A stretch of 64,000 nucleotides of DNA from a virus (taxonomy: Duplodnaviria > Caudoviricetes): positions 5,088-69,087 of the IMG/VR virus record IMGVR_UViG_3300046725_000049; one strand, 5' to 3'. The notes beneath the pieces were generated by a model. That model saw only the letters and a list, made by a program, of their open reading frames with translations, had not been told where the DNA came from and did not search any database. This document shows positions 4,601 to 34,903 of the stretch, one piece after another. Position 1 is the first letter of the stretch. Each line of letters opens with the position of its first letter. The position numbers and the translations under genes are program-made.

Positions 4601-5549
4601 CATCACCAACCAGCTCGCTGTCATGGGTCTGACCCTGGCCGATGCCGACCTGACCGACCTGGAGCTGTTCTACTGGCGGCACCTGGCCGCTGTCATGGGC
4701 AACCGGGCCGACTCCCGCCCCGACGGCCAGCCCAGCATCGGTGTGCCGCAAGGCAAGTACAGCGAGTTTTGGCGCCGCACCGCCGATGTCGGCAAGACGC
4801 CCAGCCGCGATCAGGAACTGGCCATGTGGCGCCACGCCTTCGCCGCCCTGTGCGACCCCGAACAGATCGAGGCATTCCTGGCCGCCGACGGGCACCTGCC
4901 CCGGTTCATGCACCTGGACACCCGCAACCCCACCCAGCCCTGCGGCAAGCCCTACTGGGAACGCTTCGACGTACCCCGATCCGTCTGGGCCACTCGTGCC
5001 ATGCCGGTCCTGGCCTACCGCAGCGGCCCCCGCTGGGCGGTGGCGGCCGGTGCCTGCATGAGCACCGAGACCCGCATCCGCACCATGGCCATCTGGAAGA
5101 ACGGCATGTCCTCGGTGGAGGACATGACCTTCGGATCGTCGGCCTACGTGTTCACCCGCCAGAACATGGTCGAGTTCAGCTCGATGAATGTGTACGTCAA
5201 CCCTCGGGTGTTGATCCGCACCACCAACTACGCCTACCCAGTCGACCAGTTCGGTCGTGTTGGCGAACGTAAACTGCGGGCCTACTTCGATTTCGCCACC
5301 GCGACCGGCTACATCGAACACGGCAACGAACTCATGATCAAACACAGTCTCAGCCTGCTGGATGACATCGAGGTCCTGGTGTTCGCCGACGAAGCCCACC
5401 GCGCACGTGCTATCAAGATGCTGGCCGAACGCGGCATCACCGAGATCCGGGGACTACCGGTGGCCACCCGTATCGTCAACCGACGCGACCCAGCGGCCAG
5501 AGCCGCCGCCCTGGCCGCTGTGAAACAATCCCTGATGTGCCCGAGCTGA
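1641..5549 (+). CDS. 1302-aa multidomain protein: PI3K/HipA-like atypical kinase domain plus C-terminal putative ART-like domain
   Basis: Kinase motifs WLFKP (2946), DWAIDNDDSHGEN (~3207-3245), VGIDKG (~3273-3290); C-terminal GMSS..D...GSSAYVFTR...GNELMIK (ART assignment tentative). Confidence 0.7.
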   Translation: MATETLYPQNNTGFLLDMLTKAGASPALLHVVAATGATHLESQYKSGQPVTFLLTTPGGTVTVDENALGDIEQSAVFGKYFDKWQSPGQVKFKDDLLLAKGAEISAGWHDEIQVFTATGEGYAKTVTVKADLTQTASPVEPTPAAEPTPPSPPTITIGLFCFDQHGRAVPYTGGTVIPTYGREMTAAIKAIAAAFGHTVVGRGRTKMSKQTKQEWLRAWHNGDLKQCYSIEQGHAKTSLKHPGAPGNQPTHRVIWQPAVAGETPAGELVPGDWSSPLSVKSGAEIDNYLIAAGMAHPRQLGSAHRARWVIAHQKGDKVSVDAISRSAKQSAGWHRSYPPVWNDLAPQPSLETCLQDEVAVNLWPVNALVSYSTDAGLPVAVCWSDLVTVVTEHRAQLAAEQAARDAVLTFTVAERQPTLTGYHRKMVLVDQHGRQWLFKPAPLRARQSQPELFRAQTEHEAHTLARAWGYRTAESQLIEFDGVYGQIQAMLPIQSTLAGFTGAAFATLTRTQLCALAREHLLDWAIDNDDSHGENIGVLADGSIVGIDKGRAWRYFGGWDGLSGDSSANSNAPLAYTALYAAIAQHHLDRDTVDAMYREVIAQARRMQRLPDARLAEIIGRAVANRPHYRPSSYQPAVSDAPADAAELIAAATARKNTLVTDMTALWSRIYQRAGWPPPDPLCAPLGDNAQGHPLHSGLQSPELHHAITQTKSYGTAAFVAGTDIEDAHILLWRERRPDGAFTIRGHAKVRGEAYQRLRTWCREHTTTAKAAPKTAAPTLPGEPAFYEAIIAAAKTISYHHEDKQYNDEKIAKLQWATTQLLHDRKRCQTLLDQYTPDPDGALAATAAMCQQYLGYIDAITVHQHQGSRSKEGDFPRYLYTPTTVEPLPPPPPAPFTVELCPATRAAAHQGETVKLGHDGELDLDGSVLRDGPDYQGQPGKMYLITLPGGQQIEYRGASETDTPRALHGQLQFSIPNAEHLPAALATITNQLAVMGLTLADADLTDLELFYWRHLAAVMGNRADSRPDGQPSIGVPQGKYSEFWRRTADVGKTPSRDQELAMWRHAFAALCDPEQIEAFLAADGHLPRFMHLDTRNPTQPCGKPYWERFDVPRSVWATRAMPVLAYRSGPRWAVAAGACMSTETRIRTMAIWKNGMSSVEDMTFGSSAYVFTRQNMVEFSSMNVYVNPRVLIRTTNYAYPVDQFGRVGERKLRAYFDFATATGYIEHGNELMIKHSLSLLDDIEVLVFADEAHRARAIKMLAERGITEIRGLPVATRIVNRRDPAARAAALAAVKQSLMCPS

Positions 5550-5818
5550 CCTGGCAGGAACGCTTCGACGCGGACTTCCCACACGGTCTGGTCATGCGCT
5601 GGTTCGGTGATGTCGCCAGCCCCCGCTACACCATCGAACGTGTCGAGGTCATCGCCGAGCAGGACGCCATGCCGGTCATCTACCTGCAAGTCAGCGGCGC
5701 GCAAAAATCCTTCGAGGTGCACGTGCTCGACTACCACGTCATCGGCAACGAGCATCTCACCGCCCGGGTGCGGGCGATGAGCATCCCCGACATGCTCTGG
5801 AGCGCCATCCCCGGCTAG
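5537..5818 (+). CDS. 93-aa hypothetical protein, possible immunity/partner of the upstream large protein
   Basis: GTG start overlaps the upstream ORF end by 13 nt; GC3-rich codons; function inferred from position only. Confidence 0.6.
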   Translation: MPELTWQERFDADFPHGLVMRWFGDVASPRYTIERVEVIAEQDAMPVIYLQVSGAQKSFEVHVLDYHVIGNEHLTARVRAMSIPDMLWSAIPG

Positions 5819-5845
5819 TCGAACCAAGGACCAGCCCCGACACCG

Positions 5846-5853
5846 ACCGATAG
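5846..5853 (+). promoter_or_regulatory. Candidate sigma-28-type -10 element ACCGATAG
   Basis: Intergenic, 33 nt before the protease start, followed by the RBS GGGAGG; same motif precedes other structural genes. Confidence 0.5.
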
Positions 5854-5878
5854 AGGTCAGTGTTGAGGGAGGTCCAAG

Positions 5879-6985
5879 GTGTCCGACGAACTGGTCATCG
5901 TGCCGTCTGACGGCGACGGCTACGTGGAACTGGCCCGCACCAAGCAGGGCCGCCTGTTCCGAAAGCACATCCTCAACAAGGGTGAGCTGATCCACCCGAC
6001 GACCAAGAAGAAAATCAAGGTCGACGACACCTTCATCGGCACCCTGAAGGACAACTTCGCAAAGGGCTACTGCGACATCGTCCAGGTGCCGCTGGCCGGC
6101 AAGAACAACGAACACACCGAGGCGCCCGAGAAGAACATCGGCGAAGTCATCGGCATCGAGGAAAAGGACAACAAGGTCTACGCGCTGATCGACGCGCGCA
6201 AACCAGAGTTCGCCGATCAGCTCGGAAAGACCCTGCTCGGTGCCTCCGCGATGCTGCACCTGGACTACACCGACACCAAGACCGACACCAAGGTCGGTCC
6301 GACCCTCCTGCATACGTGCGTGACCAACCGCCCGTACGTCACCGGGCTCGATGACTACCAGGAGATCCTCAGCGCTACGTCCGATACATCTCAGGGAGCG
6401 GTGCTGCTTAGCGCCGACGTGGTGGAAGTGACACCGACCGAGGAGAAGGACGAGATGGGCGACGAGCCGACCAAGGAGACGCCGGCCAAGCCGACCAAGG
6501 ACGAACTGCTGTCGATCCTCAAGTCGGAACACGGTGTCGACGTATCCGCACTCCAGGCCAAGGCCGAGGAGGGCACCCAGGCCGCGCAGCTTTCCAAGGC
6601 CCTGGTCACCGCGCTCAGCGACGCCGGGGTGGTCAAGCTGGCCGCCGAGAACACCACCGAGGCACCGTCCACTGAGGACGTTGTCGGGGCGGTCGCCGAG
6701 CTGGCGCAAAACAACGTCACCCTCACCGACAAGGTGAGCAAGCTGGAGCGCCGCGACGCGCAGTACGCGGTGGACGCCCTCGTGGAGGCCGGTCGGGTCC
6801 TGCCGGCGCAGAAGAACGCCTTCGTCGACCTCAAGCTGAGCAACCCGAGCATGTTCGACGCGCTCGTGCCGGCGCAGCCGATCGTGAAGCTGTCCACCGA
6901 GGACGGTGTGAGCCCGCCCGAGGACGCCGCGCACAAGAAGAACATCGACGAAGAGGTAGCGCGGCTGTCCGCGCTTCTGAAGTAA
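5879..6985 (+). CDS. Mu gpI-like capsid maturation protease/scaffold
   Basis: GPTLLHTCVTNRPYVTGL resembles the Mu-like protease motif; acidic helical C-terminal scaffold region; precedes decoration and capsid genes. Confidence 0.8.
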   Translation: MSDELVIVPSDGDGYVELARTKQGRLFRKHILNKGELIHPTTKKKIKVDDTFIGTLKDNFAKGYCDIVQVPLAGKNNEHTEAPEKNIGEVIGIEEKDNKVYALIDARKPEFADQLGKTLLGASAMLHLDYTDTKTDTKVGPTLLHTCVTNRPYVTGLDDYQEILSATSDTSQGAVLLSADVVEVTPTEEKDEMGDEPTKETPAKPTKDELLSILKSEHGVDVSALQAKAEEGTQAAQLSKALVTALSDAGVVKLAAENTTEAPSTEDVVGAVAELAQNNVTLTDKVSKLERRDAQYAVDALVEAGRVLPAQKNAFVDLKLSNPSMFDALVPAQPIVKLSTEDGVSPPEDAAHKKNIDEEVARLSALLK

Positions 6986-7012
6986 CCCGCAGACCGAGCA
7001 GAAAGGCGAACC

Positions 7013-7411
7013 ATGGCTACGCAGTACCAGAAGCTGCCGGTACCGGGTTACACCTCGCCGACGGCCGACTACACCGACCCGGAGATCCTTGCCTCCACTG
7101 CGAGGTTCACCCAGTGGGGTGTCACCCTGGCCGGTGGTCAGGGAGTCATCGCCGCCGGCACCGTCCTGGGCCGCAAGACGAGCGACAAGAAGTACTACGC
7201 CTACAACAACGCCAACGCCAACGGGACCGAGGTCGCCCGGGGAGTGCTGCGGCGCGCGGTGGACACCGGCGCTGCTGGCGCCGATGACCAGCAGGGCAAC
7301 ATCGTCGTGTCGGGGATTCTCAAGAACAACCTCGTCGTCGGCGCTGACGCCGCCGCGCTGACCGACCTCGGCGCCACCGTCGACACCGTGCAGAACATCT
7401 TCAAGTTCTAA
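7013..7411 (+). CDS. Head decoration protein (lambda gpD-like)
   Basis: GVTLAGGQGVIAAGTVLG...GTEVARGVL motif; 132 aa, immediately before the major capsid gene. Confidence 0.8.
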   Translation: MATQYQKLPVPGYTSPTADYTDPEILASTARFTQWGVTLAGGQGVIAAGTVLGRKTSDKKYYAYNNANANGTEVARGVLRRAVDTGAAGADDQQGNIVVSGILKNNLVVGADAAALTDLGATVDTVQNIFKF

Positions 7412-7420
7412 AGCACACGG

Positions 7421-7460
7421 GTGAGGTGTCCCGTGTCGAATCCGATGCGGGACACATCGC
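7421..7460 (+). terminator. Long hairpin after the decoration gene (terminator or stabiliser)
   Basis: GTGAGGTGTCCCG pairs with CGGGACACATCGC (one mismatch, one GU), plus inner GU-containing pairs; no U-tail. Confidence 0.5.
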
Positions 7461-7588
7461 CAAACAGCGGGGTTCGGGCGCACAGGGTCCGATGAAGTTG
7501 AACATAGGCCAGCCAAGTGATCCCCCCGGGGAGGCGCAGGCCGGGCTCGTCAGAGTCGCTGCTTCGGTGATTCCTCAAAGGAGAAGTC

Positions 7589-8608
7589 GTGCCTGACATC
7601 AGCCTCCTCGAACCGATGGTCCTTCGGGGCGTCGTCGAGAAGTTCACGACGCCCGAGACGCTGGTGATGCTCGGGCGCGTACCCCAGACCCCGTGGCCGT
7701 TCCCGAGCGTGACGTGGGACGTGATCAAGGGCTCCCGCATGGTCGCCAAGCCCAACGTTCCCAACAGCGAGGCGCACATCGTGCCCCGGCTGGGCCGCTC
7801 CCAGGAAGCGGCGGCCTTCATCTACCTGCGGGAGAAGAAGGTCTTTGAGCCGACCACGCTGCACTGGATTCGCACCCCCGGCGAGCTGGCCACCACCAAC
7901 GCCGAGAAGGCCGTCCTGCGTGAGGTGGCAGACCTCAACCAGCGCTTCGACAACTTCGCCGAACTGCTGCTGTGGGGCGCCATGCGCGGCAACCTCGCCT
8001 TCGACTTCCCCGACGTGCAGGCCGCCGTGGACTACAAGTTCCCGGCCTCGCACAAGCCGCACCCGGCCGTCGGCTGGGACACCGCCACCCCGCAGCAGAT
8101 CGTCTCGGACATCCGGGCGTGGAAGCGCCTGATCACCCGCGACGGGCGGGTTCCGGCCCGCGACGCGTTCGCCACCGAGCTGACCCTGGCCTACATCTTC
8201 GACAGCTTCGCCGCCACCGGCAACGCGGCCGGCAACTTCCTGGCCGGCACCCTGCTGTCGGACCGGATGAAGGACCAGTACTACAGCCAGGGAACCCTGC
8301 CCGGCTTCATGGGCCTGAACTGGACCCCCGTGGAGAGCATCTACGACGACGACGCGGGAGTCCACACCCTGTTCGTGCCGGACAACGCGCTGTTCATCGG
8401 CAACTACACCGACCAGAAGCCGATCGAGCTGATGATCGGACCCACCGCCGACGACGAGGCACCGGACAACTTCACCGGAAAGTACAGTAAGAGCTGGAAA
8501 GAGCCCGACCCGTCCGCCCGACAGTTCATGATCGAGTGGAATCTGCTTCCCATCGTGACCCGCCCGGAGCAGATGCTGTACGTCGCGGATGTCACCTCTA
8601 CCACCTGA
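7589..8608 (+). CDS. Major capsid protein (lambda gpE-like)
   Basis: 339 aa; strong RBS AAGGAG; gpE-like features (P...W..., LREKK, QRFDNFAELLLWGAM, VDYKFP). Confidence 0.9.
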   Translation: MPDISLLEPMVLRGVVEKFTTPETLVMLGRVPQTPWPFPSVTWDVIKGSRMVAKPNVPNSEAHIVPRLGRSQEAAAFIYLREKKVFEPTTLHWIRTPGELATTNAEKAVLREVADLNQRFDNFAELLLWGAMRGNLAFDFPDVQAAVDYKFPASHKPHPAVGWDTATPQQIVSDIRAWKRLITRDGRVPARDAFATELTLAYIFDSFAATGNAAGNFLAGTLLSDRMKDQYYSQGTLPGFMGLNWTPVESIYDDDAGVHTLFVPDNALFIGNYTDQKPIELMIGPTADDEAPDNFTGKYSKSWKEPDPSARQFMIEWNLLPIVTRPEQMLYVADVTSTT

Positions 8609-8650
8609 CCCCAGTCCAGGAACAACCCCCGACAGGGGATGATCATCCCG

Positions 8651-8686
8651 ATCAGGGGCACCGGATACACATCTGGTGCCCCTGAT
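8651..8686 (+). terminator. Intrinsic terminator after the major capsid gene
   Basis: ATCAGGGGCACC/GGTGCCCCTGAT perfect 12-bp stem plus 4 inner pairs, loop ACAC. Confidence 0.75.
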
Positions 8687-8694
8687 TTGGTTGC

Positions 8695-8702
8695 ACCGAT
8701 AG
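8695..8702 (+). promoter_or_regulatory. Candidate sigma-28-type -10 element ACCGATAG
   Basis: Directly after the terminator, ending 8 nt before ATG 8711 (leaderless-type spacing). Confidence 0.5.
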
Positions 8703-8710
8703 GAACAGCC

Positions 8711-9190
8711 ATGAGGAACCTGCGCGCCTGTTTCACGTACTGGCGTGGCATCTCGCTGTTCTTCACCCACCGCATCGGCCGGCGCGGCACCGCCCTGCTG
8801 TTTTTCGCCTTCCTCGACCTCGTTTTCGCCTTCAGCCTGTTCCGGCCACTACCCGACGCCCAGCGCAACACCGGAACCGTGTTCATCAACCACCTCGCCC
8901 CCCTGTGGCTGTGGGGCCTGCTGTGGCTGGCCGCCGGACTGCTGTGCCTGATCTACGCCTTCCGCAGCGAGGACCGCGTCGCGTTCGCCGCCGCTATCGC
9001 CATCAAAGTCCTCTGGGGCCTGGTGTACGCGCTGGGTGGGATCCTGGTGCACATCGAACGGGCCTGGCTGGCGGCGGCCATCTGGCTGAGCATGGCCGGC
9101 TGGGTGTACATCATCTCCACCTGGCCCGAGCCGCACCGCTGGCACCACCCCGCAACACCACCACGCCCCACGGCGGGCCGCCATGAGTAG
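8711..9190 (+). CDS. 4-TM membrane protein (holin-like/lysis accessory)
   Basis: Four hydrophobic segments; ATG 8711 preferred over the track start at 8639, which runs through the terminator. Confidence 0.65.
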   Translation: MRNLRACFTYWRGISLFFTHRIGRRGTALLFFAFLDLVFAFSLFRPLPDAQRNTGTVFINHLAPLWLWGLLWLAAGLLCLIYAFRSEDRVAFAAAIAIKVLWGLVYALGGILVHIERAWLAAAIWLSMAGWVYIISTWPEPHRWHHPATPPRPTAGRHE

Positions 9191-9617
9191 CTCAGCGATG
9201 ACCACCATCCTCGTCGCGGCGCTGAGCCTGCTCGGCTCCGGCCTGGCCGCGTTGCTGTCCTACCGGGCCAGCACGGCGGCCAACAAGGTGTCGGAGAAAA
9301 AGGTCGACGCCGAGGCGTACGAACGCTCCCAGCAGTTCTACGAGAAGCTGCTCGGCGAGGCGGACAAGGCCCTGGACCGGCTGCGCGGCCAGGTCGAGCG
9401 GCTACAGGACCAGCTTGATCGGGTCAACGGCCAACTCGCCCAGGAACAGGACGTGTCCAATCTGCTGCGCAACCACGTCCGGTCGTTGCAGACCCAAGTC
9501 AACGGCATGGAGACGGCGGTCAGCGCGCTGCGCACCCAAATCACCAACACCGGGTCCGCCACGGGCACCCGTCGACCCCCTCCGCCGGCTGACGGGCTGC
9601 CGATAGAAAGTGTGTGA
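9183..9617 (+). CDS. Single-TM plus coiled-coil membrane protein (lysis accessory-like)
   Basis: N-terminal hydrophobic helix followed by heptads (ALDRLRGQVERLQDQLDRVNGQL); coupled to the 4-TM gene. Confidence 0.65.
   Translation: MSSSAMTTILVAALSLLGSGLAALLSYRASTAANKVSEKKVDAEAYERSQQFYEKLLGEADKALDRLRGQVERLQDQLDRVNGQLAQEQDVSNLLRNHVRSLQTQVNGMETAVSALRTQITNTGSATGTRRPPPPADGLPIESV
9599..9606 (+). promoter_or_regulatory. Candidate sigma-28-type -10 element GCCGATAG
   Basis: Ends 7 nt before GTG 9614; 7/8 match to the sigma-28 consensus GCCGATAA. Confidence 0.45.
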
Positions 9618-10105
9618 CGGGCGGCCCGGTTAGGCGTGTCGCGCCGCCGAGGGACCAGGCCCTGACCCGGGTCCGCCCCCCGGCGGCGCCCTCACGTCGC
9701 GTCACCCTCAGCCCCGCCGGGGCATATCTCATCGAACGAGCACCCGCGTTGCTTGCCGCCGCCGCGCCACTGGCCGCATCGCCCGCCGACCTGCAACCCG
9801 CCGATCTGGCCACCGGTCGCGGCCTGACCTACGAGTGGGAGCTGTTCCTGGCCGACGTGTTGCGCCGGCTGGCCCTCGTCGAGTCCGGCACAGGCGGCGG
9901 TGGTGGCGGACTCAGTTACGTGCACACCCAAAACGCTCCTGCCGCCACCTGGACCATCAGCCACAACCTGGGCACCGCACCTGCCCTCGAACTCGTGGCC
10001 GACGACGGGACCGAGCTGTACGCCGAGGTTCACCACCCCGATCTCAACACCGTCGTCATCATCTTCGGGCAGCCCTGGTCGGGCACCGCCTACCTGTACG
10101 GCTAG
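9614..10105 (+). CDS. Virion structural protein with C-terminal HNLG-type fibre domain
   Basis: YVHTQNAPAATWTISHNLG...VIIFGQPWSGTAYL; related to the C-terminus of the next gene. Confidence 0.65.
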   Translation: MTGGPVRRVAPPRDQALTRVRPPAAPSRRVTLSPAGAYLIERAPALLAAAAPLAASPADLQPADLATGRGLTYEWELFLADVLRRLALVESGTGGGGGGLSYVHTQNAPAATWTISHNLGTAPALELVADDGTELYAEVHHPDLNTVVIIFGQPWSGTAYLYG

Positions 10106-10113
10106 GGAGTGTC

Positions 10114-10899
10114 ATGCCAATCCAGTTCGTCCAGAGCGTTGATTTCGGCAACCAGCGGCTGACCGGCGTCGCGTCCCCGTCGGTCGGCACAGACGCGGCC
10201 AACAAGAACTATGTCGACAACGCCATCCAAGGTCTGGACTGGAAGGCGTCGGTGCGGGCCGCGTCCACCGGCAACATCAACCTGGCCGCGCCCGGCGCCA
10301 CCATTGACGGCGTCACCATGGTCGCCAACGACCGGTTCCTGGCCAAAGACCAGAGCGCCGGTGCGCAAAACGGCATCTACGTCTTCAACGGCGCCGCCAC
10401 CCCGGCCACCCGCGCCACCGACGCCAACACCAGCGCCCAGGTCACCCCCGGCATGGCCACCACGGTCGAAGAGGGCTCCGTCAACGCCGACAAGATCTTC
10501 ATCGTCATCACCGACGGCCCGATCACCCTGGGCACCACCTCGCTGGCCTTCACCACCCTCGGCGGCGGCACCCCCTACACCGCCGGCAACGGCCTGAGCC
10601 TGGCCGGCAACGCCTTCTCCGTCGTGGCCGGCACCGGCATCGTCGTGGGCGCCAACGTCGGCATCGATGCCTCCGTGGTCACCCGCAAGTACGCGGCCAA
10701 CATCGGCGACGGCGCGTCCACCTCCATCAGCGTCACCCACAACCTGGGCACCCGCGACGCGCAGGTGCAGGTCTACACCAACGCCACCCCGTGGGACACC
10801 GTGTGGTGTGAGGTGCAGCGCCCAGACACCAACACCGTCACCCTCATCTTCGGCGCCGCACCCGCCTCGGCCGCCTACCGGGCCGTGGTCCAAGGATGA
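10114..10899 (+). CDS. Fibre/decoration-like virion protein
   Basis: GTDAANKNYVD, VRAASTGNINL..PGATIDGV...DRFLAKDQ..GAQNGIY motifs common in phage fibre/decoration proteins; RBS GGGAG before ATG 10114. Confidence 0.75.
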   Translation: MPIQFVQSVDFGNQRLTGVASPSVGTDAANKNYVDNAIQGLDWKASVRAASTGNINLAAPGATIDGVTMVANDRFLAKDQSAGAQNGIYVFNGAATPATRATDANTSAQVTPGMATTVEEGSVNADKIFIVITDGPITLGTTSLAFTTLGGGTPYTAGNGLSLAGNAFSVVAGTGIVVGANVGIDASVVTRKYAANIGDGASTSISVTHNLGTRDAQVQVYTNATPWDTVWCEVQRPDTNTVTLIFGAAPASAAYRAVVQG

Positions 10900-11282
10900 T
10901 CAAGTTCCGGCAGCTTCTGGACTTCGGCGGCTTCCGGCTCACCAGCCTTGGGACACCGACCGCCGGCACGGATGCAGCCACCAAGGCATACGTCGACAGC
11001 GCGGTAACAAGCCCGGTCCACACGGTGGCCACCAAGACCACCAACTACACCATCGGCGCCACCGATGACATCGTCCTGGCCAACGGTGCCGCGCTCACCA
11101 TCACCCTGCCGTCGGCTGTGACCGCCGGCTCGGGACGCGCCTACACCGTGAAAAACATCAACAGCGGCAGCGCGACGCTCACCGCAACCGCCGGCACCAT
11201 CGACGGCGCCGCCGCTATCACCCTGCGCCAGGATGAGGCCCGCACGGTTGTGTCCGACGGCGCCAACTGGTACGTCATTTAG
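10896..11282 (+). CDS. Small fibre-like virion protein
   Basis: GTDAATKAYVD repeat shared with the upstream gene; TITLPSA...SDGANWYVI beta-rich domain. Confidence 0.7.
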   Translation: MIKFRQLLDFGGFRLTSLGTPTAGTDAATKAYVDSAVTSPVHTVATKTTNYTIGATDDIVLANGAALTITLPSAVTAGSGRAYTVKNINSGSATLTATAGTIDGAAAITLRQDEARTVVSDGANWYVI

Positions 11283-11294
11283 CGGAGTTGACCG

Positions 11295-12164
11295 ATGACC
11301 TACAGCCCCGGCGACGTGGAGGTCCAGGCGTTCACCGATGCGGTGACGCCGGGAACCTGGATCAAACCGGTCGGCGCCAAGACGGTGTTCGTGTACGCCG
11401 TCGGTGGGGGCGGAGGTGGTGCCTCGGGCCGGCAGGGCGCCGCCGGGACCACCCGGTATGCCGGCACCGGTGGCGGAGGTGCTGCCAGCGCCTCCAACTG
11501 GTTCCTGGCCAACGCCCTACCGGCCACCGTCAGTGTCACCGTCGGCGCCGGAGGAGCCGCCGGGGCTGGCCCGGCTACCACCGGTAGCGTCGCGGCGGCT
11601 GGCCTCAACGGTGCAGCCGGCGGGAACAGCACCTTCGGTACCTACATCACAGCCGGCGGTGGCGGACCGGGGGTTATCGATGTCGGCGGCGCCGCCGGTA
11701 ACGGAGCCGGTGGATCCGGCAACAATGGGCCGAGCTACATGTCCCACGGCCTGCCCTCGTTCATCACCGGCACTGGCAGTGGTGGTGGCGGCGGCACTCC
11801 GCCCAACACCAGCAAGGGCGCTGGTGGCGGAAACATCGGTGGCTCGATCAACACCTCCAATGCCGAGGTGCCCGCCGCCCAGGTGGGTGGTACTAACACC
11901 GTTTTCTCCACTCAACAGGCGGGGGCGCCCGCCGGTGTCGCCCCCGGCGGAAACGGCGCCAATGGGCAGTCCGGTGGCCCGGTCGGCGACGGCGGAGGTG
12001 GCGGCGCGTCCAATGTGGGCGGCAGCGTGCCAGCCGGCAAAGGCGGCAATGGCGGTTACCCCGGCGGCGGCGGAGGTGGCGGTGGGGCATCCGTGGTGCC
12101 CTACCACTCCGGTGTTGGCGGAGTTGGCGCCGACGGGCACGTCATTGTTTTCACCCATTTCTAG
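11295..12164 (+). CDS. Glycine-rich virion protein, paralog 1
   Basis: TWIKPVGAKTVFVYAVGGGGGG...GADGHVIVFT, a glycine-rich phage domain. Confidence 0.75.
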   Translation: MTYSPGDVEVQAFTDAVTPGTWIKPVGAKTVFVYAVGGGGGGASGRQGAAGTTRYAGTGGGGAASASNWFLANALPATVSVTVGAGGAAGAGPATTGSVAAAGLNGAAGGNSTFGTYITAGGGGPGVIDVGGAAGNGAGGSGNNGPSYMSHGLPSFITGTGSGGGGGTPPNTSKGAGGGNIGGSINTSNAEVPAAQVGGTNTVFSTQQAGAPAGVAPGGNGANGQSGGPVGDGGGGGASNVGGSVPAGKGGNGGYPGGGGGGGGASVVPYHSGVGGVGADGHVIVFTHF

Positions 12165-12182
12165 GCAGGAGCCGACCCGCCG

Positions 12183-13046
12183 ATGACCTACACCCGCAAT
12201 CCCGTCGACCTCCAGGTGTTCACCGACGCCACCAGCCCCGCCACCTGGACCAAACCGGCCGGTGCCAAGACGGTGTTCGTTTTCGTCGTCGGTGCGGGTG
12301 CAGGCGGCGCCTCCGGTCGGCAGGGCGCCACCAACACGATCCGCTACGGCGGCACCGGCGGTGGCGGTGGTGGCCTGTCCACCAACTGGTATCTGGCCAA
12401 CGTCCTGCCGGCCACCGTTACCGTCACCGTCGGCGCCGCCGGCTCCGGCGGCGTGGGAGCGTCCACCACAGGCGTAGTAGCGGCGGCCGGAGCCAACGGC
12501 GTCGACGGCGGCAGCTCCAGTTTCGGCATACTCGTCACGGCCGGCGGCGGCGTGCACGGCATCATCGACAGCGGCGGAACCGGAGCAAATGGCGTCGGCG
12601 GAGCGGGCAACAATGGGCCGAGCTACATGGCTACCGGGTTGCCGTCCTTCGTGGCCGTTGCGGGGACCGGCGGGTCTGGGCAGAGCGGCGGCGGATCCAG
12701 TACCAAGGGCGCCGGCGGTGGAAATGTCGGTGGCTCGCTCAACAGCTCGAATGTGGAGTCGAACCCGGCCCAGCCGGGTCAAGCCCACAACTTGTTCGCA
12801 CAATCCGGCGGTGGCGCCGCAGGCGTGTCCCCCGGCGGCAACGGTGGCAGCGGCGCCACAGGAGGGGCGTTGGGTGCCGGCGGCGGCGGCGGAGGCTGCC
12901 ACCCGAGCGCAGCGGCTGGCAACGGCGGTACCGGTGGCTACCCCGGCGGCGGCGGTGGTGGTGGTGGAGCCTCACCTACCGGTTTCCACGCCGGTACCGG
13001 TGCGAGCGGCGCCGACGGGTACGTCATCGTCGTCACCCAGCTCTGA
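12183..13046 (+). CDS. Glycine-rich virion protein, paralog 2
   Basis: Colinear with the previous gene (TWTKPAGAKTVFV..., GNNGPSYM, SKGAGGGN/TKGAGGGN, GGYPGGGGGGG). Confidence 0.75.
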   Translation: MTYTRNPVDLQVFTDATSPATWTKPAGAKTVFVFVVGAGAGGASGRQGATNTIRYGGTGGGGGGLSTNWYLANVLPATVTVTVGAAGSGGVGASTTGVVAAAGANGVDGGSSSFGILVTAGGGVHGIIDSGGTGANGVGGAGNNGPSYMATGLPSFVAVAGTGGSGQSGGGSSTKGAGGGNVGGSLNSSNVESNPAQPGQAHNLFAQSGGGAAGVSPGGNGGSGATGGALGAGGGGGGCHPSAAAGNGGTGGYPGGGGGGGGASPTGFHAGTGASGADGYVIVVTQL

Positions 13047-13056
13047 TCTGAACCCC

Positions 13057-13064
13057 ACCGATAA
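13057..13064 (+). promoter_or_regulatory. Candidate sigma-28-type -10 element ACCGATAA
   Basis: In a 44-nt intergenic gap, followed by the RBS GAAAGG and ATG 13091. Confidence 0.5.
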
Positions 13065-13090
13065 GTCAAAGGGTGAAAGGTGGTGGCCCC

Positions 13091-13753
13091 ATGCCCCGAG
13101 GTGTACCGCGCACTCCCCGTGCGAAAGCGACCAGCGAGATGGTCGCGTTGCTGGCCGAGACTCTTGACCCCGACTCGGACGAGACCATCGAGGACCCCGA
13201 CGAGGAGCAGCTCGACGACGAGCAGCCCGACGAGGCTCCCGACGAGTTGGTTCCGGCGCCCCGGCCCCAGCCGGAATCCACGCTGAGCCCCGAGCAGCGG
13301 CGCATCCGCGAGCTGGAAAACCAGCTCGCCGTGGAACGCGGACGCAAGGACCCGCAAGCCGAGCTGGAGAAGCCCAAGCGCAGCAAGGAGAACGTCCTCA
13401 TCCACTTCGTGGGCGACGGATTCACCGCGTTGGGCCAGATCTGGTACCGGGGCCAGGAGCTGGAGTTCACCCCCGGCAGCGGCGCCTACCAGGACACCTG
13501 CGACCGGTCCGGGCGGTCCTGGCTGGAGCTGCGCGAGGACGAGAGCACCCAGATCGAGAAATACGGCGAGGTGATGTTCCGGCCGGGGCCGTGGCCCGGC
13601 AAGAGCTACACCGACGCGAGCAGCGTGGCCTACGAGCAGTTGAAGCCGCTCAAGTCCGGCGGCGCGTTCGCCCCGCCCAGCGAGGAGGAGCTGGCCAAGG
13701 CCGCCGCCGCTGAGGCCAAGCGGCGCCGCGCCGCGCCCCGCCTGCCCCGGTAG
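13091..13753 (+). CDS. Hypothetical acidic protein in the head-neck region
   Basis: RBS GAAAGGTGG; acidic N-terminus, globular-looking core HFVGDGFTALGQIWYRGQELEF. Confidence 0.7.
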   Translation: MPRGVPRTPRAKATSEMVALLAETLDPDSDETIEDPDEEQLDDEQPDEAPDELVPAPRPQPESTLSPEQRRIRELENQLAVERGRKDPQAELEKPKRSKENVLIHFVGDGFTALGQIWYRGQELEFTPGSGAYQDTCDRSGRSWLELREDESTQIEKYGEVMFRPGPWPGKSYTDASSVAYEQLKPLKSGGAFAPPSEEELAKAAAAEAKRRRAAPRLPR

Positions 13754-13765
13754 AGGAGGTCCACC

Positions 13766-14323
13766 GTGCTGCCTGTGCCAACGCTTGACTACCTGGCCCA
13801 GTTCACCGGGCGCAGCCTCGCCAGCTACAGCGCCTACGCCGAGCAGGCGTTGGCGCAGGCCGCTCTGATGTTTTCCACCGTCACCAAGCTGACCGACCTG
13901 CCCGAGGACCCGGACCAGCAGCAGTTGGCCATCAACGGCATTCTTCAGATGGCCGACCGGCTCTACCTGGAGCAGCCCTACGCCACCGCCAAGGCCACCC
14001 CGTACACCTCCGAGTCGATCGGCTCCTACAGCTACAGCAAGGGCTACAGTGCCACCACGGCCAAGGCCGCCAAGGGGGAGCTGACCGGGCTGTTCTGGTG
14101 GGACCTGGCCGTGGAGGAACTGTCCCAGGTGCAGCGGTCCCTGGTCACCTCCGGATCCGTGGGTGTCTTCGACCATGACATCCGCCGGCAAGCCAGCGAC
14201 GGGCGGCGGGTGGTGATCGGGCCGGCCGAGGGGATGGAGTTTTCCGACCTCATCCCAGGCAACGCCGTGGAGTTCGTACCCGTCGACGCCACCGTGGTTG
14301 ATCACGATGTGGCAGGCGGCTGA
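13766..14323 (+). CDS. Head-to-tail adaptor
   Basis: SESIGSYSYS motif typical of gp15/gp6-like adaptors; RBS GAGGAGG. Confidence 0.75.
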   Translation: MLPVPTLDYLAQFTGRSLASYSAYAEQALAQAALMFSTVTKLTDLPEDPDQQQLAINGILQMADRLYLEQPYATAKATPYTSESIGSYSYSKGYSATTAKAAKGELTGLFWWDLAVEELSQVQRSLVTSGSVGVFDHDIRRQASDGRRVVIGPAEGMEFSDLIPGNAVEFVPVDATVVDHDVAGG

Positions 14324-14745
14324 TGCGCCACCTCTACTCCACCCGCGCCGAGGCGCTGCGCATGTCCGGGACGCTGGTCGACGGCAGCCCGGTACTTACC
14401 TGGACCAAGGTCGACACCATCGTGGACCCGAGTCTCGATGTTCCCGGCGAGCTGATGTGCCGGCTGGACATGGCCTTCGTGCGGCCCGGTAAGGACCAGC
14501 CGATGCCGGTGGTCGCCGGCCGCGCCCCCGACCGGATCGGGCTCATGTTCTTCGATGTCGGCGTCGATGTGCGGGCCGGTGACCGCATCCACGCTCTCAG
14601 TGGTCCGGTGGTCGGCACCTTCGAGGTGCGTGTGGTGCCCGACCCGGCGGTGGACCTGGCCTCCGCGCACCACATGGAGGTCCAGGTCGTCGAGGTCGCC
14701 CAGGCACTGACCGGGGTCTTCCCCGGCGCGGCAGTGGAGACCTGA
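14323..14745 (+). CDS. Head closure/stopper protein
   Basis: 140 aa beta-rich (DVRAGDRI...HHMEV); synteny after the adaptor. Confidence 0.65.
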   Translation: MRHLYSTRAEALRMSGTLVDGSPVLTWTKVDTIVDPSLDVPGELMCRLDMAFVRPGKDQPMPVVAGRAPDRIGLMFFDVGVDVRAGDRIHALSGPVVGTFEVRVVPDPAVDLASAHHMEVQVVEVAQALTGVFPGAAVET

Positions 14746-14746
14746 C

Positions 14747-15160
14747 ATGGGCGTAGCGATTCACATGGACGCCAGCGACTGGCTGGCCGAGCTGCACCGC
14801 CTGGCCGACGGGCCGGACCTGCACGACCTGCTACGACTGGAGGCCGTCCTTACCGAACAGTTCGAGCTGACCCAGCAGTACGTGCACGTCATCACCGGCT
14901 CGCTGCGCGCCTCCGGCAAGATACACAGCGACATGCACGGCCACCTCTGGGAAGGTGAGATCACCTACGGCGGCCAGTCCAACGCCATCATCGACCCGGT
15001 CAACTACGCCCGCCGCGAGCAATCCCGGGGTGTTAGCGATGTCATTGGGGTCACCGGAGGCGGCGACGAACACGGCGACCACGACTTCATGCGCCCGCTT
15101 GGCGGCGAGCAACACGGATACCTCCAGGCGATCTTGGCCTTCCTGCGCGGTGAGCGGTGA
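14747..15160 (+). CDS. HK97 gp10-like tail completion protein
   Basis: HVITGSLRASG motif; synteny. Confidence 0.6.
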   Translation: MGVAIHMDASDWLAELHRLADGPDLHDLLRLEAVLTEQFELTQQYVHVITGSLRASGKIHSDMHGHLWEGEITYGGQSNAIIDPVNYARREQSRGVSDVIGVTGGGDEHGDHDFMRPLGGEQHGYLQAILAFLRGER

Positions 15161-15636
15161 GCGCCCCCGACGACCTGATCGGTGGCGCTGTCAAATATCT
15201 GGCCGCCCAACCCGAGGTGTTGGCCGCGTTGGGTAGCTTCCCCGACGGCAAGCCCTACCTGTTCCAACGCAGCACGTGGGTCAACCTGGAAGGCAGCCAG
15301 GCCACCGCCGCCACGCTGTTTCGCGCCGGCGGCTGGGCCGGACCCAATCAGCACAACAGCATGCGCTTCCCCCGCCTTGGGTTGGAGATCTCCGCCGACC
15401 CGCAACGCGACGCCGCCAACAACCCCGCCGGCCTGGCCGCCGAAGCCGAACTGCGCCTGGTGGACACGTTCAACGTCATCGACCGGTTTCTGCACCGGCC
15501 GCAAAGCGGAGTGCAGATGTGGGGCACCGTACGCACCATCGGCTGCGCCCGGCTGGCCGAACCCGCCGTGTTCCCGGTTCCCGACGGCGGCGGGATGATG
15601 CGGCTGCGCGCCTTCTACGGCGTCATCGAAGGCTAA
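15157..15636 (+). CDS. Tail terminator protein
   Basis: 159 aa, position before the tail tube gene. Confidence 0.55.
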   Translation: MSAPDDLIGGAVKYLAAQPEVLAALGSFPDGKPYLFQRSTWVNLEGSQATAATLFRAGGWAGPNQHNSMRFPRLGLEISADPQRDAANNPAGLAAEAELRLVDTFNVIDRFLHRPQSGVQMWGTVRTIGCARLAEPAVFPVPDGGGMMRLRAFYGVIEG

Positions 15637-15638
15637 CG

Positions 15639-16772
15639 ATGAAGGTCCTACTCAAGAGCCCACTGAATCCCTACAGCGGCTACGGCGTGGATGGCATCGG
15701 CATCGCCCAGGCCCTGACCCGCGCCGGCATCGACGTGTACCTGGACCCCGAGGTGATCGGACCGCCTCTACCGTCTGGCGTGGCCACGCTGCTAACCAAA
15801 CGCCTCGACGGGCCGTTCGACCTGCTCATCCACCACAGCGACCCAGACCAGCTCGGCATCAGCGACAACGCCCGCCGGGGTGTGTCAGCCGCCGTGGGCT
15901 GGACCATGTGGGAGTACACGAGCACTGAAAATCTCCCCGGCCGCGACAGCCTGACCAAGCGGCTGCTCAACTACGACCTGGTCCTGGGCTACGACACGGT
16001 CTCCACCGCCGCCCTGGCACCCCACCAACGCCGCATCGCCACCCTGCAAGGCGGCTTCTGGCCCGACACCTGGCCGAAGGCCACCACCCGGGACTGGACC
16101 GGTGACCGGTTCGGGTTCGCCATGGTCGGGCAACTGCACCAACGCAAGGACCCATTCGTGGCCATCCAGGCGTTCAAGGAACTTCGGGATGAGCATCCCG
16201 ACTTCCACAACGCCGAACTGCACCTCAAAACTTCGACCCCCGGCCTGCACACCGCAATGCAGGACTGGTGCCCCGGCCTGTATGTGCACTACGCCGTGTG
16301 GCCCACCGAAGCGCTCCGCGACTTCTACGGCCGCCAACATGTCCTGCTCGCCCCTTCACGCGGGGAAGGCAAGAACGTGCCCGCCCTGGAGTTCATGTCC
16401 ACCGGCGGCACGGTCATCGCCACCAACTGGGGCGGCCCCACCCAGTGGCTGTCCAACCAGTACGCCTACCCGCTGGACTTCGAGCTGCAACCCCAATCCC
16501 CGGCCACACCCGACTGCCGCAACGCCCGCGCCGACAAGGACCACCTCAAGGCGCTGATGCTGCACACCTACCGCACCCGCGCCGAGGTCGCCCGCAAGGG
16601 GGCGATGGCCGCCCGCGTCATCCCCGCCATGTGCGGCTGGGAACCGGTTCTGGAACGGCTGTTCACCAAACTGGCCGAACACATTCCCACCACCGGCCCC
16701 CAACTCCAGCACGCCTACCGCGCCGCGAAGACCGCCCAGGAAACCCGAGGGCTGGTGCGCACCGTTGGCTGA
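15639..16772 (+). CDS. Glycosyltransferase, GT-B fold (GT4-like)
   Basis: SGYG near the N-terminus, RKDP...AF, LLAPSRGEGKNVPALEFMSTGGTVIATNWGG; true start ATG 15639. Confidence 0.9.
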   Translation: MKVLLKSPLNPYSGYGVDGIGIAQALTRAGIDVYLDPEVIGPPLPSGVATLLTKRLDGPFDLLIHHSDPDQLGISDNARRGVSAAVGWTMWEYTSTENLPGRDSLTKRLLNYDLVLGYDTVSTAALAPHQRRIATLQGGFWPDTWPKATTRDWTGDRFGFAMVGQLHQRKDPFVAIQAFKELRDEHPDFHNAELHLKTSTPGLHTAMQDWCPGLYVHYAVWPTEALRDFYGRQHVLLAPSRGEGKNVPALEFMSTGGTVIATNWGGPTQWLSNQYAYPLDFELQPQSPATPDCRNARADKDHLKALMLHTYRTRAEVARKGAMAARVIPAMCGWEPVLERLFTKLAEHIPTTGPQLQHAYRAAKTAQETRGLVRTVG

Positions 16773-16992
16773 AACCATCGAGGTCCGCTGCCCCGTCGGA
16801 CCCCAGCGGCTGTTCACCAAACTCAAGCTGGGCGAGGAGGCCGCCCGCATGGTGCAACCGGCCAACCTCATCGAGTTCACCTGCCAGGACTGCACCGGCA
16901 AGACCAGCCGAGCGCAGGGCCACGCCGTGAAGGTGTTCCACCGCTACAACTTCCTCGGCGAGCTGGTCGAGACCATCGTCGAGCCCAGGTAG
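16765..16992 (+). CDS. Small putative metal-binding protein
   Basis: 75 aa with RCP and CQDC motifs; coupled to the GT gene. Confidence 0.65.
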   Translation: MAETIEVRCPVGPQRLFTKLKLGEEAARMVQPANLIEFTCQDCTGKTSRAQGHAVKVFHRYNFLGELVETIVEPR

Positions 16993-17060
16993 CCACAGGG
17001 TTTCCCAACCTCTCCATCCGATTAGACACAACGACCCGTCCGAGGCAGGGGAGTGTCGTT

Positions 17061-17621
17061 GTGGCTAGCAAGATCGTAGAAGGCTTTTCGCTGACGCACG
17101 CGGCGATCCTGGATGGGGCGACCGGGGCCGAGGAGGTCGCGGGCGACATCTACGGTGTGCGCTCGGGCACCATCGCCGCCGACACCGGCAACTACGACAA
17201 CACCGGTGATGACGCCGTGTTGTCCTCGTGGTTCTGGTTCAACTTCGCCACCGTGACGATCCAGGCCGGGTACGTGCCGTTCGACACCATCGCGCTGCTG
17301 TCCGGCGCCACGGTGACTTCCTCCGGCACCGCCCCCAACGACTACTACAGCCTTCCGCTGTGGGACACCGACTCCCTCAACCAGCCGCCCCGCCCCATGG
17401 TGATTCGGGTGCCGGCCAAGGACGTGGCAGGTCTGACCCGAACCATCGACTTCGTGCTTTACCGGGTCCAGTTCGGCCCGTTCTCCTTCGACGGCCCCAG
17501 CTACAAGAGCGGGTTGCTGTTGAACTACACCGGCCGCGCCGTGGTGTCCTCGGTCGACGAGACCGGTGCGGCCCTGACGAAGAAGGCCGTCGGGCGAATC
17601 ATCAACCGCCCCGCCACCTAA
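17061..17621 (+). CDS. Major tail (tube) protein
   Basis: 186 aa beta-rich; RBS GGGGAG; lies upstream of the chaperone and tape measure genes. Confidence 0.8.
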   Translation: MASKIVEGFSLTHAAILDGATGAEEVAGDIYGVRSGTIAADTGNYDNTGDDAVLSSWFWFNFATVTIQAGYVPFDTIALLSGATVTSSGTAPNDYYSLPLWDTDSLNQPPRPMVIRVPAKDVAGLTRTIDFVLYRVQFGPFSFDGPSYKSGLLLNYTGRAVVSSVDETGAALTKKAVGRIINRPAT

Positions 17622-17665
17622 TACAACACCCAACGCCAACCACACGGAGCCCTTGGAGGCGAGTT

Positions 17666-18352
17666 GTGTCTGAGCTGGACGCCCTAGACCCCGTACCCGA
17701 GACGGTGAAACTGTCCTCGGGTACCACGGTCGTCCTGGAAGACCTCAAGGCCAGGCAGTTCTTCAAGCTGCTGCGCATCATCACCGTCGGCGCCCTGCCG
17801 GCCATCCAGGACACCTCCATGTTGCGGATGGACCCCAACAGCGACCCCGCCGAGTTCGGCGCCCGGCTGCTGTCGGTCATGGTGCTGGCCATCCCCAACG
17901 CCGAAGACCAGGCCATCGACTTCCTGCGTTCCATGGTCAAGCCCCACGGGCTCATCGAGCGGCGCGGCATCAACAAACAGGACACCGAACGCAACCAGGC
18001 GTTGTGGGAGGCCCTGTACGTCGAGCTGGACAACCCCGAACTCGATGACCTGGTCACCCTCGTCGAGGCGATCGTGCGGCGCGAATCCGCCGACATCCAG
18101 GCACTGGGAAAGCGCCTGGCGGGGATGCTGAAGATGGCCGAGAAGACCGGCCAGATCCCGGCGCCCCCGCAGCAGACATCGCCGACGCAGACCTCCTCGG
18201 TGGGTTCAGTCGAGCCTTCGACCTCCTCAGTCACGAGTACGGATGGGACGACCAGCAGCTCGGTGACCTCACTCTCCGTCGATTCCGTCAGTGCGTCGCT
18301 GCCGTTCGAGAACGGCGTCACTACCAGCGGTGGGAACGCGACCAGTGGCTGA
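17666..18352 (+). CDS. Tail assembly chaperone (gpG-like)
   Basis: GTG 17666 after RBS GGAGG; contains an in-frame G GGA AAG slippery site. Confidence 0.85.
   Translation: MSELDALDPVPETVKLSSGTTVVLEDLKARQFFKLLRIITVGALPAIQDTSMLRMDPNSDPAEFGARLLSVMVLAIPNAEDQAIDFLRSMVKPHGLIERRGINKQDTERNQALWEALYVELDNPELDDLVTLVEAIVRRESADIQALGKRLAGMLKMAEKTGQIPAPPQQTSPTQTSSVGSVEPSTSSVTSTDGTTSSSVTSLSVDSVSASLPFENGVTTSGGNATSG
18106..18112 (+). promoter_or_regulatory. -1 programmed ribosomal frameshift heptamer GGGAAAG
   Basis: X XXY YYZ in the correct phase (CTG GGA AAG); same heptamer as lambda G-T; -1 frame open to 18564. Confidence 0.9.
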
Positions 18353-18564
18353 TCTGGCAGACCCGAACCATCTCGACGTTCGTGGCGGCCACCGTGCCCG
18401 TTGAGCGTCCCGGCGCCGCCAGTCCGCTGCTTGAAGTCGCCCAGAGCATCGGGGAGCCGCCAGGCGAGGACACCACACCGGCCGGGCACGCCGAGCCCGT
18501 CGAGGGCTCCTTTGAACGGTTCATGGGCAGCTTCGGCAATCCCGCGAGGTGGGCGGGCCGCTAA
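18112..18564 (+). CDS. Frameshift-accessed C-terminal part of the gpGT chaperone
   Basis: -1 frame reads APGGDAEDG...FDLLSHEYGWDDQQLGDLTLRRFRQCV... with no stop until TAA 18562-18564; not recovered by the ORF track. Confidence 0.85.
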   Translation, partial: APGGDAEDGREDRPDPGAPAADIADADLLGGFSRAFDLLSHEYGWDDQQLGDLTLRRFRQCVAAVRERRHYQRWERDQWLIWQTRTISTFVAATVPVERPGAASPLLEVAQSIGEPPGEDTTPAGHAEPVEGSFERFMGSFGNPARWAGR

Positions 18565-18580
18565 CGCGGGGAGGTGAGAC

Positions 18581-34121: not shown

Positions 34122-34213
34122 ACGGCGGAGACCTGATGCTCGTCGGCGGCCTGATGATGTTCGTCGGCGGGATCATCTTCGTCGTAGCGATGACCAGCGG
34201 GCGGGGTCGATAG
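34118..34213 (+). CDS. 31-aa membrane peptide
   Basis: GTGA overlap with the upstream stop, hydrophobic LMLVGGLMMFVGGIIFVVAM, ends directly before the sigma start. Confidence 0.5.
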   Translation: MNGGDLMLVGGLMMFVGGIIFVVAMTSGRGR

Positions 34214-34903
34214 GTGGACGCCCGGACGGAAGCAATGATTCGTGATCACATGGGTCTGGCGCAGTCACTGGCCCAGCAGGTGTGGCGCTCCGCTCCACAC
34301 GCCCTGGAGCTGGAGGAGCTGCGCGCGATTGCCCACCTCGGTCTGGTCGACGCCGCTGCCCGGTGGAGACCGTACTGCCACAAGAATCAATTCGACCCGG
34401 CCCGCATCGAATACTTCAAGCCCTACGTGGCCCGGCGGGTCTACGGCGAGCTGATGGACGAGATCCGCCGGCGGGACTACGCCTCCCGATCCCTGCGCAC
34501 CAAGGCCCGCGCCCTCCAGGAAGCCGGCCAGGACCGGGGCCTGTCCGAGGCGCAACTAGCCGAGCGCTCCGGGATGAGCATCAAGGAAGTCCGCGCCACC
34601 GTGCGCGGCATGGCGCAGCGTCCGGTCAGTCTGGAAGCCGAGGAGTTGGATCTGGACGCCCGCCAGGACGTGGAGTCCTGCGCCTTCACCTCCTCCGTGT
34701 TGGACAGCGTCGTGGTCGCCATCCGTGCCCTCGGTGAAGACCAGCAGGTCGTCATCGCCCTGCATTATTTCCGGGGCCTTCAGCTTCAGCAGATCGCCCG
34801 CGAGATGGGCATCACCGAATCCCACGCCTCCCAACTGCACGCGCATGCCGTGACGGCCGTGCATGCCGCGATGGTGTACGCCGCCCAAGCCAAGGATGAC
34901 TGA
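34214..34903 (+). CDS. RNA polymerase sigma factor, FliA/WhiG (sigma-28) family
   Basis: HLGLVDAA, RVYGELMDEIRRRDYASRSLRTKAR, VIALHYFRGLQLQQIAREMGITESHASQLH match sigma-28 regions 2-4. Confidence 0.9.
   Translation: MDARTEAMIRDHMGLAQSLAQQVWRSAPHALELEELRAIAHLGLVDAAARWRPYCHKNQFDPARIEYFKPYVARRVYGELMDEIRRRDYASRSLRTKARALQEAGQDRGLSEAQLAERSGMSIKEVRATVRGMAQRPVSLEAEELDLDARQDVESCAFTSSVLDSVVVAIRALGEDQQVVIALHYFRGLQLQQIAREMGITESHASQLHAHAVTAVHAAMVYAAQAKDD

Follow-up and report, generated by a model that had tools for sequence, protein, structure and literature searches.

The genome of a tailed virus, IMG/VR record IMGVR_UViG_3300046725_000049 (69,087 bp, 66% G+C), carries a short word with the core CCGAT in front of several of its virion genes, and so do the genomes of its relatives. 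This CCGAT box is a real and widely conserved regulatory signal. The box is likely to mark sites of transcription initiation. On balance we favor a fuller reading, in which the boxes would be the -10 elements of late promoters that have no -35 element, and would be read by a FliA-like sigma factor encoded by the phage itself. All coordinates refer to the window, the whole stretch of 64,000 nucleotides that was analysed (bases 5088-69087 of the genome), unless they are marked as genome positions.

Plus-strand genes up to about position 29,300 make up the structural arm (terminase-like, protease/scaffold, major capsid, head decoration, tail tube-like, tape measure and tail genes). The replication genes lie downstream, with the gene for the FliA-like sigma among them. 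For comparison, a capsid search of IMG/VR yielded 175 relatives, from which 80 loci at 57-82% identity were kept. The phage collection contains one cultured relative, Microbacterium phage Magritte (OR553905), with a capsid identity of 63%.

Placement and conservation of the CCGAT box

Is the box found where a regulatory signal would be expected? The hexamer CCGATA as such is not enriched, with 12 copies where 14.5 were expected. The heptamer CCGATA(A/G) occurs nine times on both strands of the 69-kb phage, and six of these nine copies lie at most 60 nt upstream of a same-strand start codon. Control words of the same composition that contain an A/T run fall into this position in 6.7% of cases, which corresponds to a binomial P = 6.6e-6. 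Positional enrichment, whose absence the first-pass annotation had named as grounds for giving up its promoter hypothesis, is therefore present. Within the structural arm, ACCGATA ties with a ribosome-site word for the most intergenic-enriched 7-mer; in the intergenic word ranking of the whole genome CCGATA is not among the top words, and its enrichment is modest.

The first-pass annotation had marked five boxes together with their preceding base (A-CCGATAG at 5846 and 8695, G-CCGATAG at 9599, A-CCGATAA at 13057 and the variant T-CCGATTA at 17017), and all five lie where it placed them. It had also counted two other plus-strand copies of CCGATA in the first 30 kb; there are three, at 4522, 6381 and 20898. 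On the plus strand, the CCGATAG box at 5847-5853 is the predicted -10 element of the protease/scaffold promoter and is followed by a 25-nt leader with a GGGAGG Shine-Dalgarno (SD) sequence and the gene itself (5879-6985, +). A variant box, CCGATGA at 7489-7495 (+), precedes the leader of the major capsid gene (7589-8608, +). It had escaped the first-pass annotation and is common to close relatives, which show CCGATGA, CCGATGG or CCGATTA at the homologous spot. The CCGATAG box at 8696-8702 (+) is separated by 8 nt from an ATG at 8711 that has no SD sequence, and we predict a leaderless promoter for the minor structural gene at 8711-9190 (+). The CCGATAG box at 9600-9606 (+) overlaps the final codons of gene 9198-9617; 7 nt further on, a GTG at 9614 is the predicted leaderless start of the open reading frame 9614-10105. 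This GTG, which overlaps the stop codon of the upstream gene as GTGA and has the CCGATAG box 14 nt away, is likely to be the true start of the gene (163 aa), rather than the internal start at 9749. If the gene does start there, the upstream count given above rises to seven of nine. At 13058-13064 (+), a CCGATAA box is followed by a leader with the ribosome site GAAAGGTGG and by gene 13091-13753, the product of which begins with MPRG. The variant CCGATTA box at 17018-17024 (+) lies upstream of the tail tube-like gene (17061-17621, +). Two intergenic CCGATAA boxes fall outside the window: the one at genome position 1861 is followed after 7 nt by the GTG of the terminase-like gene, and the one at genome position 3783 has the next large gene 51 nt downstream. 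A possible extra site, CCGATAG at 39710-39716 on the minus strand, lies 44 nt before the ATG of a 79-aa gene (39433-39672) and may be a late promoter outside the structural arm.

The box is retained at orthologous genes of the relatives: about 55 IMG/VR contigs, and Magritte as well, carry a CCGAT core at the protease/scaffold gene, the capsid leader, the MPRG gene and the tail tube gene. In their loci CCGATA(A/G) is three times commoner on the coding strand than on the other strand (136 versus 46 copies). Upstream of the protease ortholog, CCGAT lies within 70 nt in 46 of 53 non-redundant loci, and 37 of these copies are 13-15 nt from the start codon; permuted pentamers reach a mean of 4.0 and a maximum of 19. 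The capsid ortholog has CCGAT within 150 nt upstream in 36/63 loci (control mean 7.7, maximum 18), the tail tube ortholog in 11/16 (control mean 0.9) and the ortholog of the MPRG gene in 4/5. The sole ortholog found for gene 9614-10105 likewise has CCGAT at 13-15 nt. Genes internal to operons show CCGAT in 4/29, 1/15 and 0/6 cases, which is the control level.

Across the relatives CCGAT is the invariant part of the box, and the bases that follow are clade-specific: the ending is ATA(A/G) here and in close relatives, and TTA, TCT, TAC or ATATCC elsewhere. Of the relatives with the tail tube-like gene, the three closest (L005, L006 and L011) keep its variant box as CCGATTAG(A/T)CAC. In Magritte, the word (C/T)CGATATCCCTG precedes gp19 (scaffold/protease, 14 nt to the ATG), gp23, gp33 (major tail protein) and gp41; the gp23 box reads CCGATAT and occupies the site equivalent to 13058, and the gp33 box reads TCGATAT.

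Start-site geometry and the upstream region

The distance between box and start codon falls into two classes. Across 1125 non-redundant candidate starts, the most frequent separation between the first C of CCGAT and the start codon is 14 nt (51 cases); 15 nt is seen in 11 cases and 13 nt in 5. A control pentamer yields about one case at any given distance, and the 14-nt peak stands about 50-fold above this level. The second class is a broad shoulder at 29-50 nt. Both classes had been anticipated by the first-pass annotation, which held that the spacing fits either a leaderless start or a downstream ribosome-binding site. All 51 members of the 14-nt class have a pyrimidine at -1 (C in 47), and an SD-like word is found in only four of them. 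Starts led by an SD sequence have C at -1 in 43%.

This geometry can be laid over that of a known promoter. In the solved sigma-28 open complex of P. aeruginosa, the fliC -10 element occupies (-15)GCCGATAA(-8) (PMC12784957). On this scale the first C of CCGAT falls at -14, and +1 coincides with the A or G of the start codons in the 14-nt class. The box thus agrees with the -10 element of the sigma-28 class, GCCGATAA with its essential CGA, ending 8 nt before a start site that is here a predicted one. Where the start codon follows exactly 14 nt downstream (boxes at genome 1861, 8696 and 9600), the mRNA would be leaderless; the boxes at 5847, 7489, 13058, 17018 and genome 3783 would give rise to a short leader with an SD sequence or, for the capsid gene, with a structured RNA. 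By this geometry, many late mRNAs would be leaderless.

What lies upstream of the box? In a logo of 54 non-redundant family sites, in which CCGAT served as the search anchor and is fixed by construction, the region from -50 to -1 is flat, with every position below 0.17 bit, and no -35 element is seen. The actinobacterial WhiG -35 consensus (xT(C/A)Ax with a 15-17 nt spacer; PMC13595943) is present in 0/9 sites of the phage. The first-pass annotation was right in stating that a TAAA -35 is absent, since neither TAAA nor xT(C/A)Ax occurs at the sites examined. It had further proposed that the phage sigma works with a changed -35, and this part is not supported: the 54-site logo shows no conserved upstream element at all. 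The GT(C/A)G motif to which it pointed does exist, at -29 to -26 from the first C in four of its five sites, but is unconserved and looks like a chance occurrence. As a -35 element it would sit about 43 nt before the predicted start, which is too far upstream; it overlaps a TAG stop codon in two sites, is missing at both extra sites and has no trace in the family logo.

Terminator-like stems immediately precede several of the boxes, so that the -35 position falls inside variable hairpins. One case is the strong terminator-like hairpin after the capsid gene (outer pairs 8644-8693, +, with a main 17-bp stem at 8650-8687), which stops 3 nt ahead of the box at 8696. The 92-nt segment 8609-8700 folds at -48.2 kcal/mol (z -6.4). 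A terminator scan missed this hairpin, probably because its scanning criteria were not satisfied, and the structure became apparent on folding. In the E. coli sigma-28 complex, contacts to the -10 element are strong and those to the -35 element weak (bioRxiv 10.1101/2020.01.02.893370), which makes a -35-independent derivative plausible.

A second class of promoter-like words is found outside the structural arm. Prediction of sigma-70-type promoters in 5400-18700 gave none. About 20 GGTAG(G/T/A) boxes, with a TAGnnT-like -10 and in some cases a TTGAC-like -35, are found in plus-strand intergenic DNA between 29855 and 63717. They precede early, replication and lysogeny genes, and none occurs in intergenic DNA of the structural arm. 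The sigma gene belongs to a block whose first gene, a helicase gene, has a GGTAG box 39 nt upstream. Another GGTAG box, at 40412, is positioned to make a BldC-like gene (40424) leaderless.

The candidate sigma factor and competing explanations

Which factor would read the box? The gene proposed here encodes a FliA/WhiG-like sigma of group 3, with regions 2, 3 and 4, at 34235-34903 on the plus strand. A sigma gene at 34214-34903 had been recognized in the first-pass annotation; the gene is there, with ATG 34235 a likelier start than GTG 34214, and this ATG agrees with the N-termini of homologous sigmas. The best NCBIfam match is TIGR02479 (FliA_WhiG; 98.2 bits, E 5.5e-28), aligned over residues 9-220 of 229. 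The group 3 architecture, which has no region 1.1 and typically about 230-280 aa, is present in a product of 222-229 aa: Pfam Sigma70_r4 passes its cut-off, and r3 and r2 match weakly. The protein aligns over its full length to the FliA and WhiG models and to PDB 6pmi_F, and among solved structures it comes closest to WhiG (6pfv, 6pfj) and E. coli FliA (6pmi).

Eight of the nine E. coli FliA residues that contact the -10 and extended -10 element are kept in the phage sigma (Y70, R74, D81, R84, D87, R91, R94 and R98), and R95 is replaced by T. In twelve sigmas of the family, at 25-67% identity, D81, R84, D87, R91 and R94 are invariant, position Y70 is aromatic and R74 is found in 10/12. For D81, R84 and R91 a -10 contact role was reportedly described by Koo et al. 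in 2009. Contacts to the -10 or extended -10 element are made by R84, R94 and R98 in E. coli, and the same role falls to the equivalents of Y70, R74, D81, D87, R91 and R98 in P. aeruginosa (PMC12784957; bioRxiv 10.1101/2020.01.02.893370). The E. coli residues K208 and R220, which touch the -35 backbone (bioRxiv 10.1101/2020.01.02.893370), are Q and H in the phage sigma. The earlier suggestion that this factor kept sigma-28 -10 specificity while its -35 specificity changed is therefore supported in its first half, by the FliA/WhiG best match and the retained contact residues, and not in its second.

A homolog of this sigma is found in 10 of the 11 relatives checked, namely the L011 contig, nine of ten long contigs and Magritte; it is missing from a 72%-complete contig. 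In Magritte the homolog is gp47 (47155-47895), annotated as 'DNA binding protein', and the order helicase, sigma, nucleotide-metabolism gene, DnaB is the same as here. There are at least 179 metagenomic homologs, some of which were named FliA by the JGI pipeline. The neighbors of the sigma gene encode an HNH protein, a dCTP deaminase, RlaP and a DnaB-like helicase. No match to an anti-sigma family (FlgM- or RsiG-like) was found near the sigma gene, where small unannotated open reading frames were not examined. A TCGATAG at 34207-34213, 28 nt before the sigma ATG, might suggest autoregulation; in relatives, the sigma genes are not consistently preceded by a box, and the word is possibly a chance match.

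In the mechanism that we propose, the CCGAT(A/T/G)(A/G) boxes would be the -10 elements of late promoters. Host core RNA polymerase carrying the phage sigma (34235-34903) would bind them with no sequence-specific contact at -35, and transcription would start 14 nt downstream of the first C of the box. The host sigma would act first, followed by the phage sigma and then by the virion genes, a timing suggested by the position of the sigma gene in a replication module whose intergenic DNA has host-type GGTAG promoters.

Several points weigh against this proposal. The evidence comes from sequence comparison. The IMG/VR loci are interrelated and were de-duplicated by exact identity only, so that the counts overstate the number of independent events, and gene starts in the relatives were called by a simple heuristic. 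Two copies of CCGATA(A/G), at 20898 within the tape measure gene (18581-23539, +) and at 42339, have no obvious target gene. At 98.2 bits the sigma falls below the TIGR02479 cut-off of 189.6 and so does not count as a curated FliA/WhiG member. A -35 element is part of known sigma-28 promoters, and region 4 is still recognisable in the phage sigma, but the boxes are not accompanied by a -35; nor is the G of GCCGATAA conserved in the family logo. Finally, a second, weakly ECF-like (extracytoplasmic function) sigma at 46093-46785 (+) is conserved in 10/11 relatives searched, Magritte included. Since both sigmas are equally widespread, presence and absence cannot tell which of them reads the box. 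A phyletic test of the form 'no box, no sigma' fails as well: contigs without CCGATA(A/G) keep a more diverged sigma, and these contigs still carry the CCGAT core with other bases at positions 6 and 7.

Could a sigma-28-family factor of the host, WhiG or FliA, read the boxes instead, alone or together with the phage sigma? The core of the box equals the actinobacterial WhiG -10 consensus GCCGA, in which CGA is essential (PMC13595943). We nonetheless regard this as improbable. The WhiG -35 is missing from all nine sites, and the family logo shows no upstream conservation; moreover, the phages nearly always carry a sigma of their own with matching contact residues. The G+C content of the relatives spans 45-71%, so their hosts are probably diverse. 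A capsid search over 185,579 species genomes gave matches in three bacterial assemblies only, each of them an uncultured metagenome bin; of the three contigs with the capsid relative, at least two have the size of a phage genome. The first-pass annotation had raised cross-talk in both directions. As the boxes have no WhiG-type -35, their sequence gives no backing to a firing of phage late genes by host WhiG. In the other direction, the phage sigma could in principle act on sigma-28 targets of the host, given a -10 specificity that is apparently shared.

Somewhat less probable still is that the box is not a promoter element at all, and acts as the DNA site of a regulator, as an RNA processing signal or as a translation signal. 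Its frequent position close to start codons and a conserved copy inside a coding region (6381) speak for such a role. A translation signal, in contrast, would not split into a class at 14 nt without SD and a class at about 29-50 nt and more with SD. In the 14-nt class the box would lie outside the mRNA, and the invariable pyrimidine at -1 fits a choice of start made at the DNA level. Core and spacing are, in addition, those of a known sigma class of which the phage encodes a homolog.

The chances are slim that the ECF-like sigma at 46093-46785 reads the boxes and the FliA-like sigma serves another class of genes, an arrangement that the phyletic pattern permits. ECF sigmas depend strongly on an AAC-type -35 and have no domain 3, the part that reads the extended -10. 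Here there is no -35, and the CC of the box sits where domain 3 of sigma-28 contacts DNA. In the L009 contig (96% complete), CCGATAG boxes are present and the second sigma is not detected; its match to sigma models is weak in any case (26 bits). The ECF-like sigma more likely serves another promoter class. Considering the residue conservation, the sigma-28 core and spacing, the -35 dependence of ECF factors and the case of L009, we think that the FliA-like phage sigma, and not another, is the probable reader of the boxes. An accident of composition, in which words with A/T runs, kept out of high-GC coding DNA, gather between genes, could account for a hexamer that is not over-represented and has modest intergenic enrichment, but is refuted to the point of being negligible by the placement statistics, by orthologous conservation amid diverged flanks and by the 14-nt peak.

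Late-region features and relation to known systems

Two further conserved elements belong to the late region. The capsid mRNA has a structured 5' leader (7505-7575, +) that begins a few nt downstream of the predicted start site. In its two hairpins, 10 of 13 base pairs show compensatory changes among 31 sequences. Homologous leaders occur in loci L001-L080 and L091, with the stretches GCAGGCCGG and GTCGCTG nearly invariant. A search of 5500-18700 against Rfam returned chance microRNA-like matches only and left the capsid leader unmatched. The leader RNA might serve translation control or mRNA stability.

The second element is the CCGATAC at 6381-6387 (+), which lies inside the protease/scaffold gene, is conserved in orthologs and is a candidate internal promoter. 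About 44 of 58 protease orthologs keep xCC GAT at this place, and the flanking residues vary. The Asp codon of the box is GAT in all but one ortholog, as compared to 22% GAT among the Asp codons of these genes. Retention of GAT amid varying neighbors argues for selection at the nucleotide level. Perhaps this box drives expression of a nested scaffold product from the C-terminal part of the gene, an arrangement like that of Mu I/Z or lambda C/Nu3. An in-frame GTG is located downstream, at 6401. Elsewhere in the arm, two adjacent glycine-rich paralogs (11295-12164 and 12183-13046; Pfam Gly_rich_2, PHROG tail fibre / minor tail) have CCG immediately 5' of the ATG in both cases and near-identical first codons.

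How does the proposed system compare with those already described? Promoters of the bacterial sigma-28 class (FliA, SigD, WhiG) combine a -35 TAAA (actinobacterial xT(C/A)Ax), a spacer of 15-16 and the -10 GCCGATAA. The phage boxes share the CCGA(T) core with its first C at -14, a group 3 sigma and the retained contact residues. They differ in having no -35, in the unconserved G at -15 and in positions 6-7, which drift by clade; the phage sigma differs in scoring below the family cut-off, and its targets are virion genes, many of them predicted to be leaderless. As in known phage-sigma systems, a phage factor is predicted to divert the host core polymerase to a separate promoter class for virion genes. 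Unlike those systems, which use phage-specific sigma lineages and their own promoters, the sigma described here is recognisably derived from cellular sigma-28 and appears to keep its -10 specificity, and it has no close homology to the known phage-specific sigmas. In T4, too, late promoters are built from a -10-type element alone.

The predicted leaderless starts resemble those of mycobacteria, in which a -10 TANNNT is followed after 6-7 nt by an A/GTG that serves at once as start site and as start codon (PMC4633059). Fixed spacing between -10 and start codon, absence of an SD sequence and a purine start are common to both; in place of the housekeeping TANNNT, the -10 is here CCGATNN, that of a sigma-28-type factor. 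A short conserved word near many starts also brings to mind the start-associated sequences (SAS) of cluster K mycobacteriophages, which occupy the ribosome-binding position and have an SD-like core. Unlike these, the CCGAT box lies 14 nt upstream with no SD, or far upstream of one. A literature search, from which subscription journals were largely excluded, found no description of phage FliA/WhiG-like sigmas with CCGAT promoters. A phage sigma with late promoters of its own and the sigma-28-type -10 are thus known; what would be new is the absence of a -35, leaderless late mRNAs and a captured cellular sigma.

Taken to its full extent, the proposal would describe a large uncultured family of actinobacterial phages, with Magritte as its cultured member, that runs its whole late programme on -35-less promoters through a captured sigma-28, with mostly leaderless late mRNAs, a protease-internal promoter for a nested scaffold, a structured capsid leader and possible firing of host WhiG/FliA targets (sporulation, motility) in infection or lysogeny. 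That all of this holds together is doubtful. Because Magritte is cultured and carries the system, unannotated, the predictions are open to bench tests now, among them the leaderless late virion mRNAs. The boxes yield a simple transcription map, open to test, of a high-GC phage family that is widespread and has hardly been studied, and the compact, orthogonal pairs of sigma and promoter may be useful in high-GC hosts. For the biology of the family, they point to a cellular alternative sigma that would have been co-opted by phages with its reading of the -10 element intact and its requirement for a -35 apparently lost.

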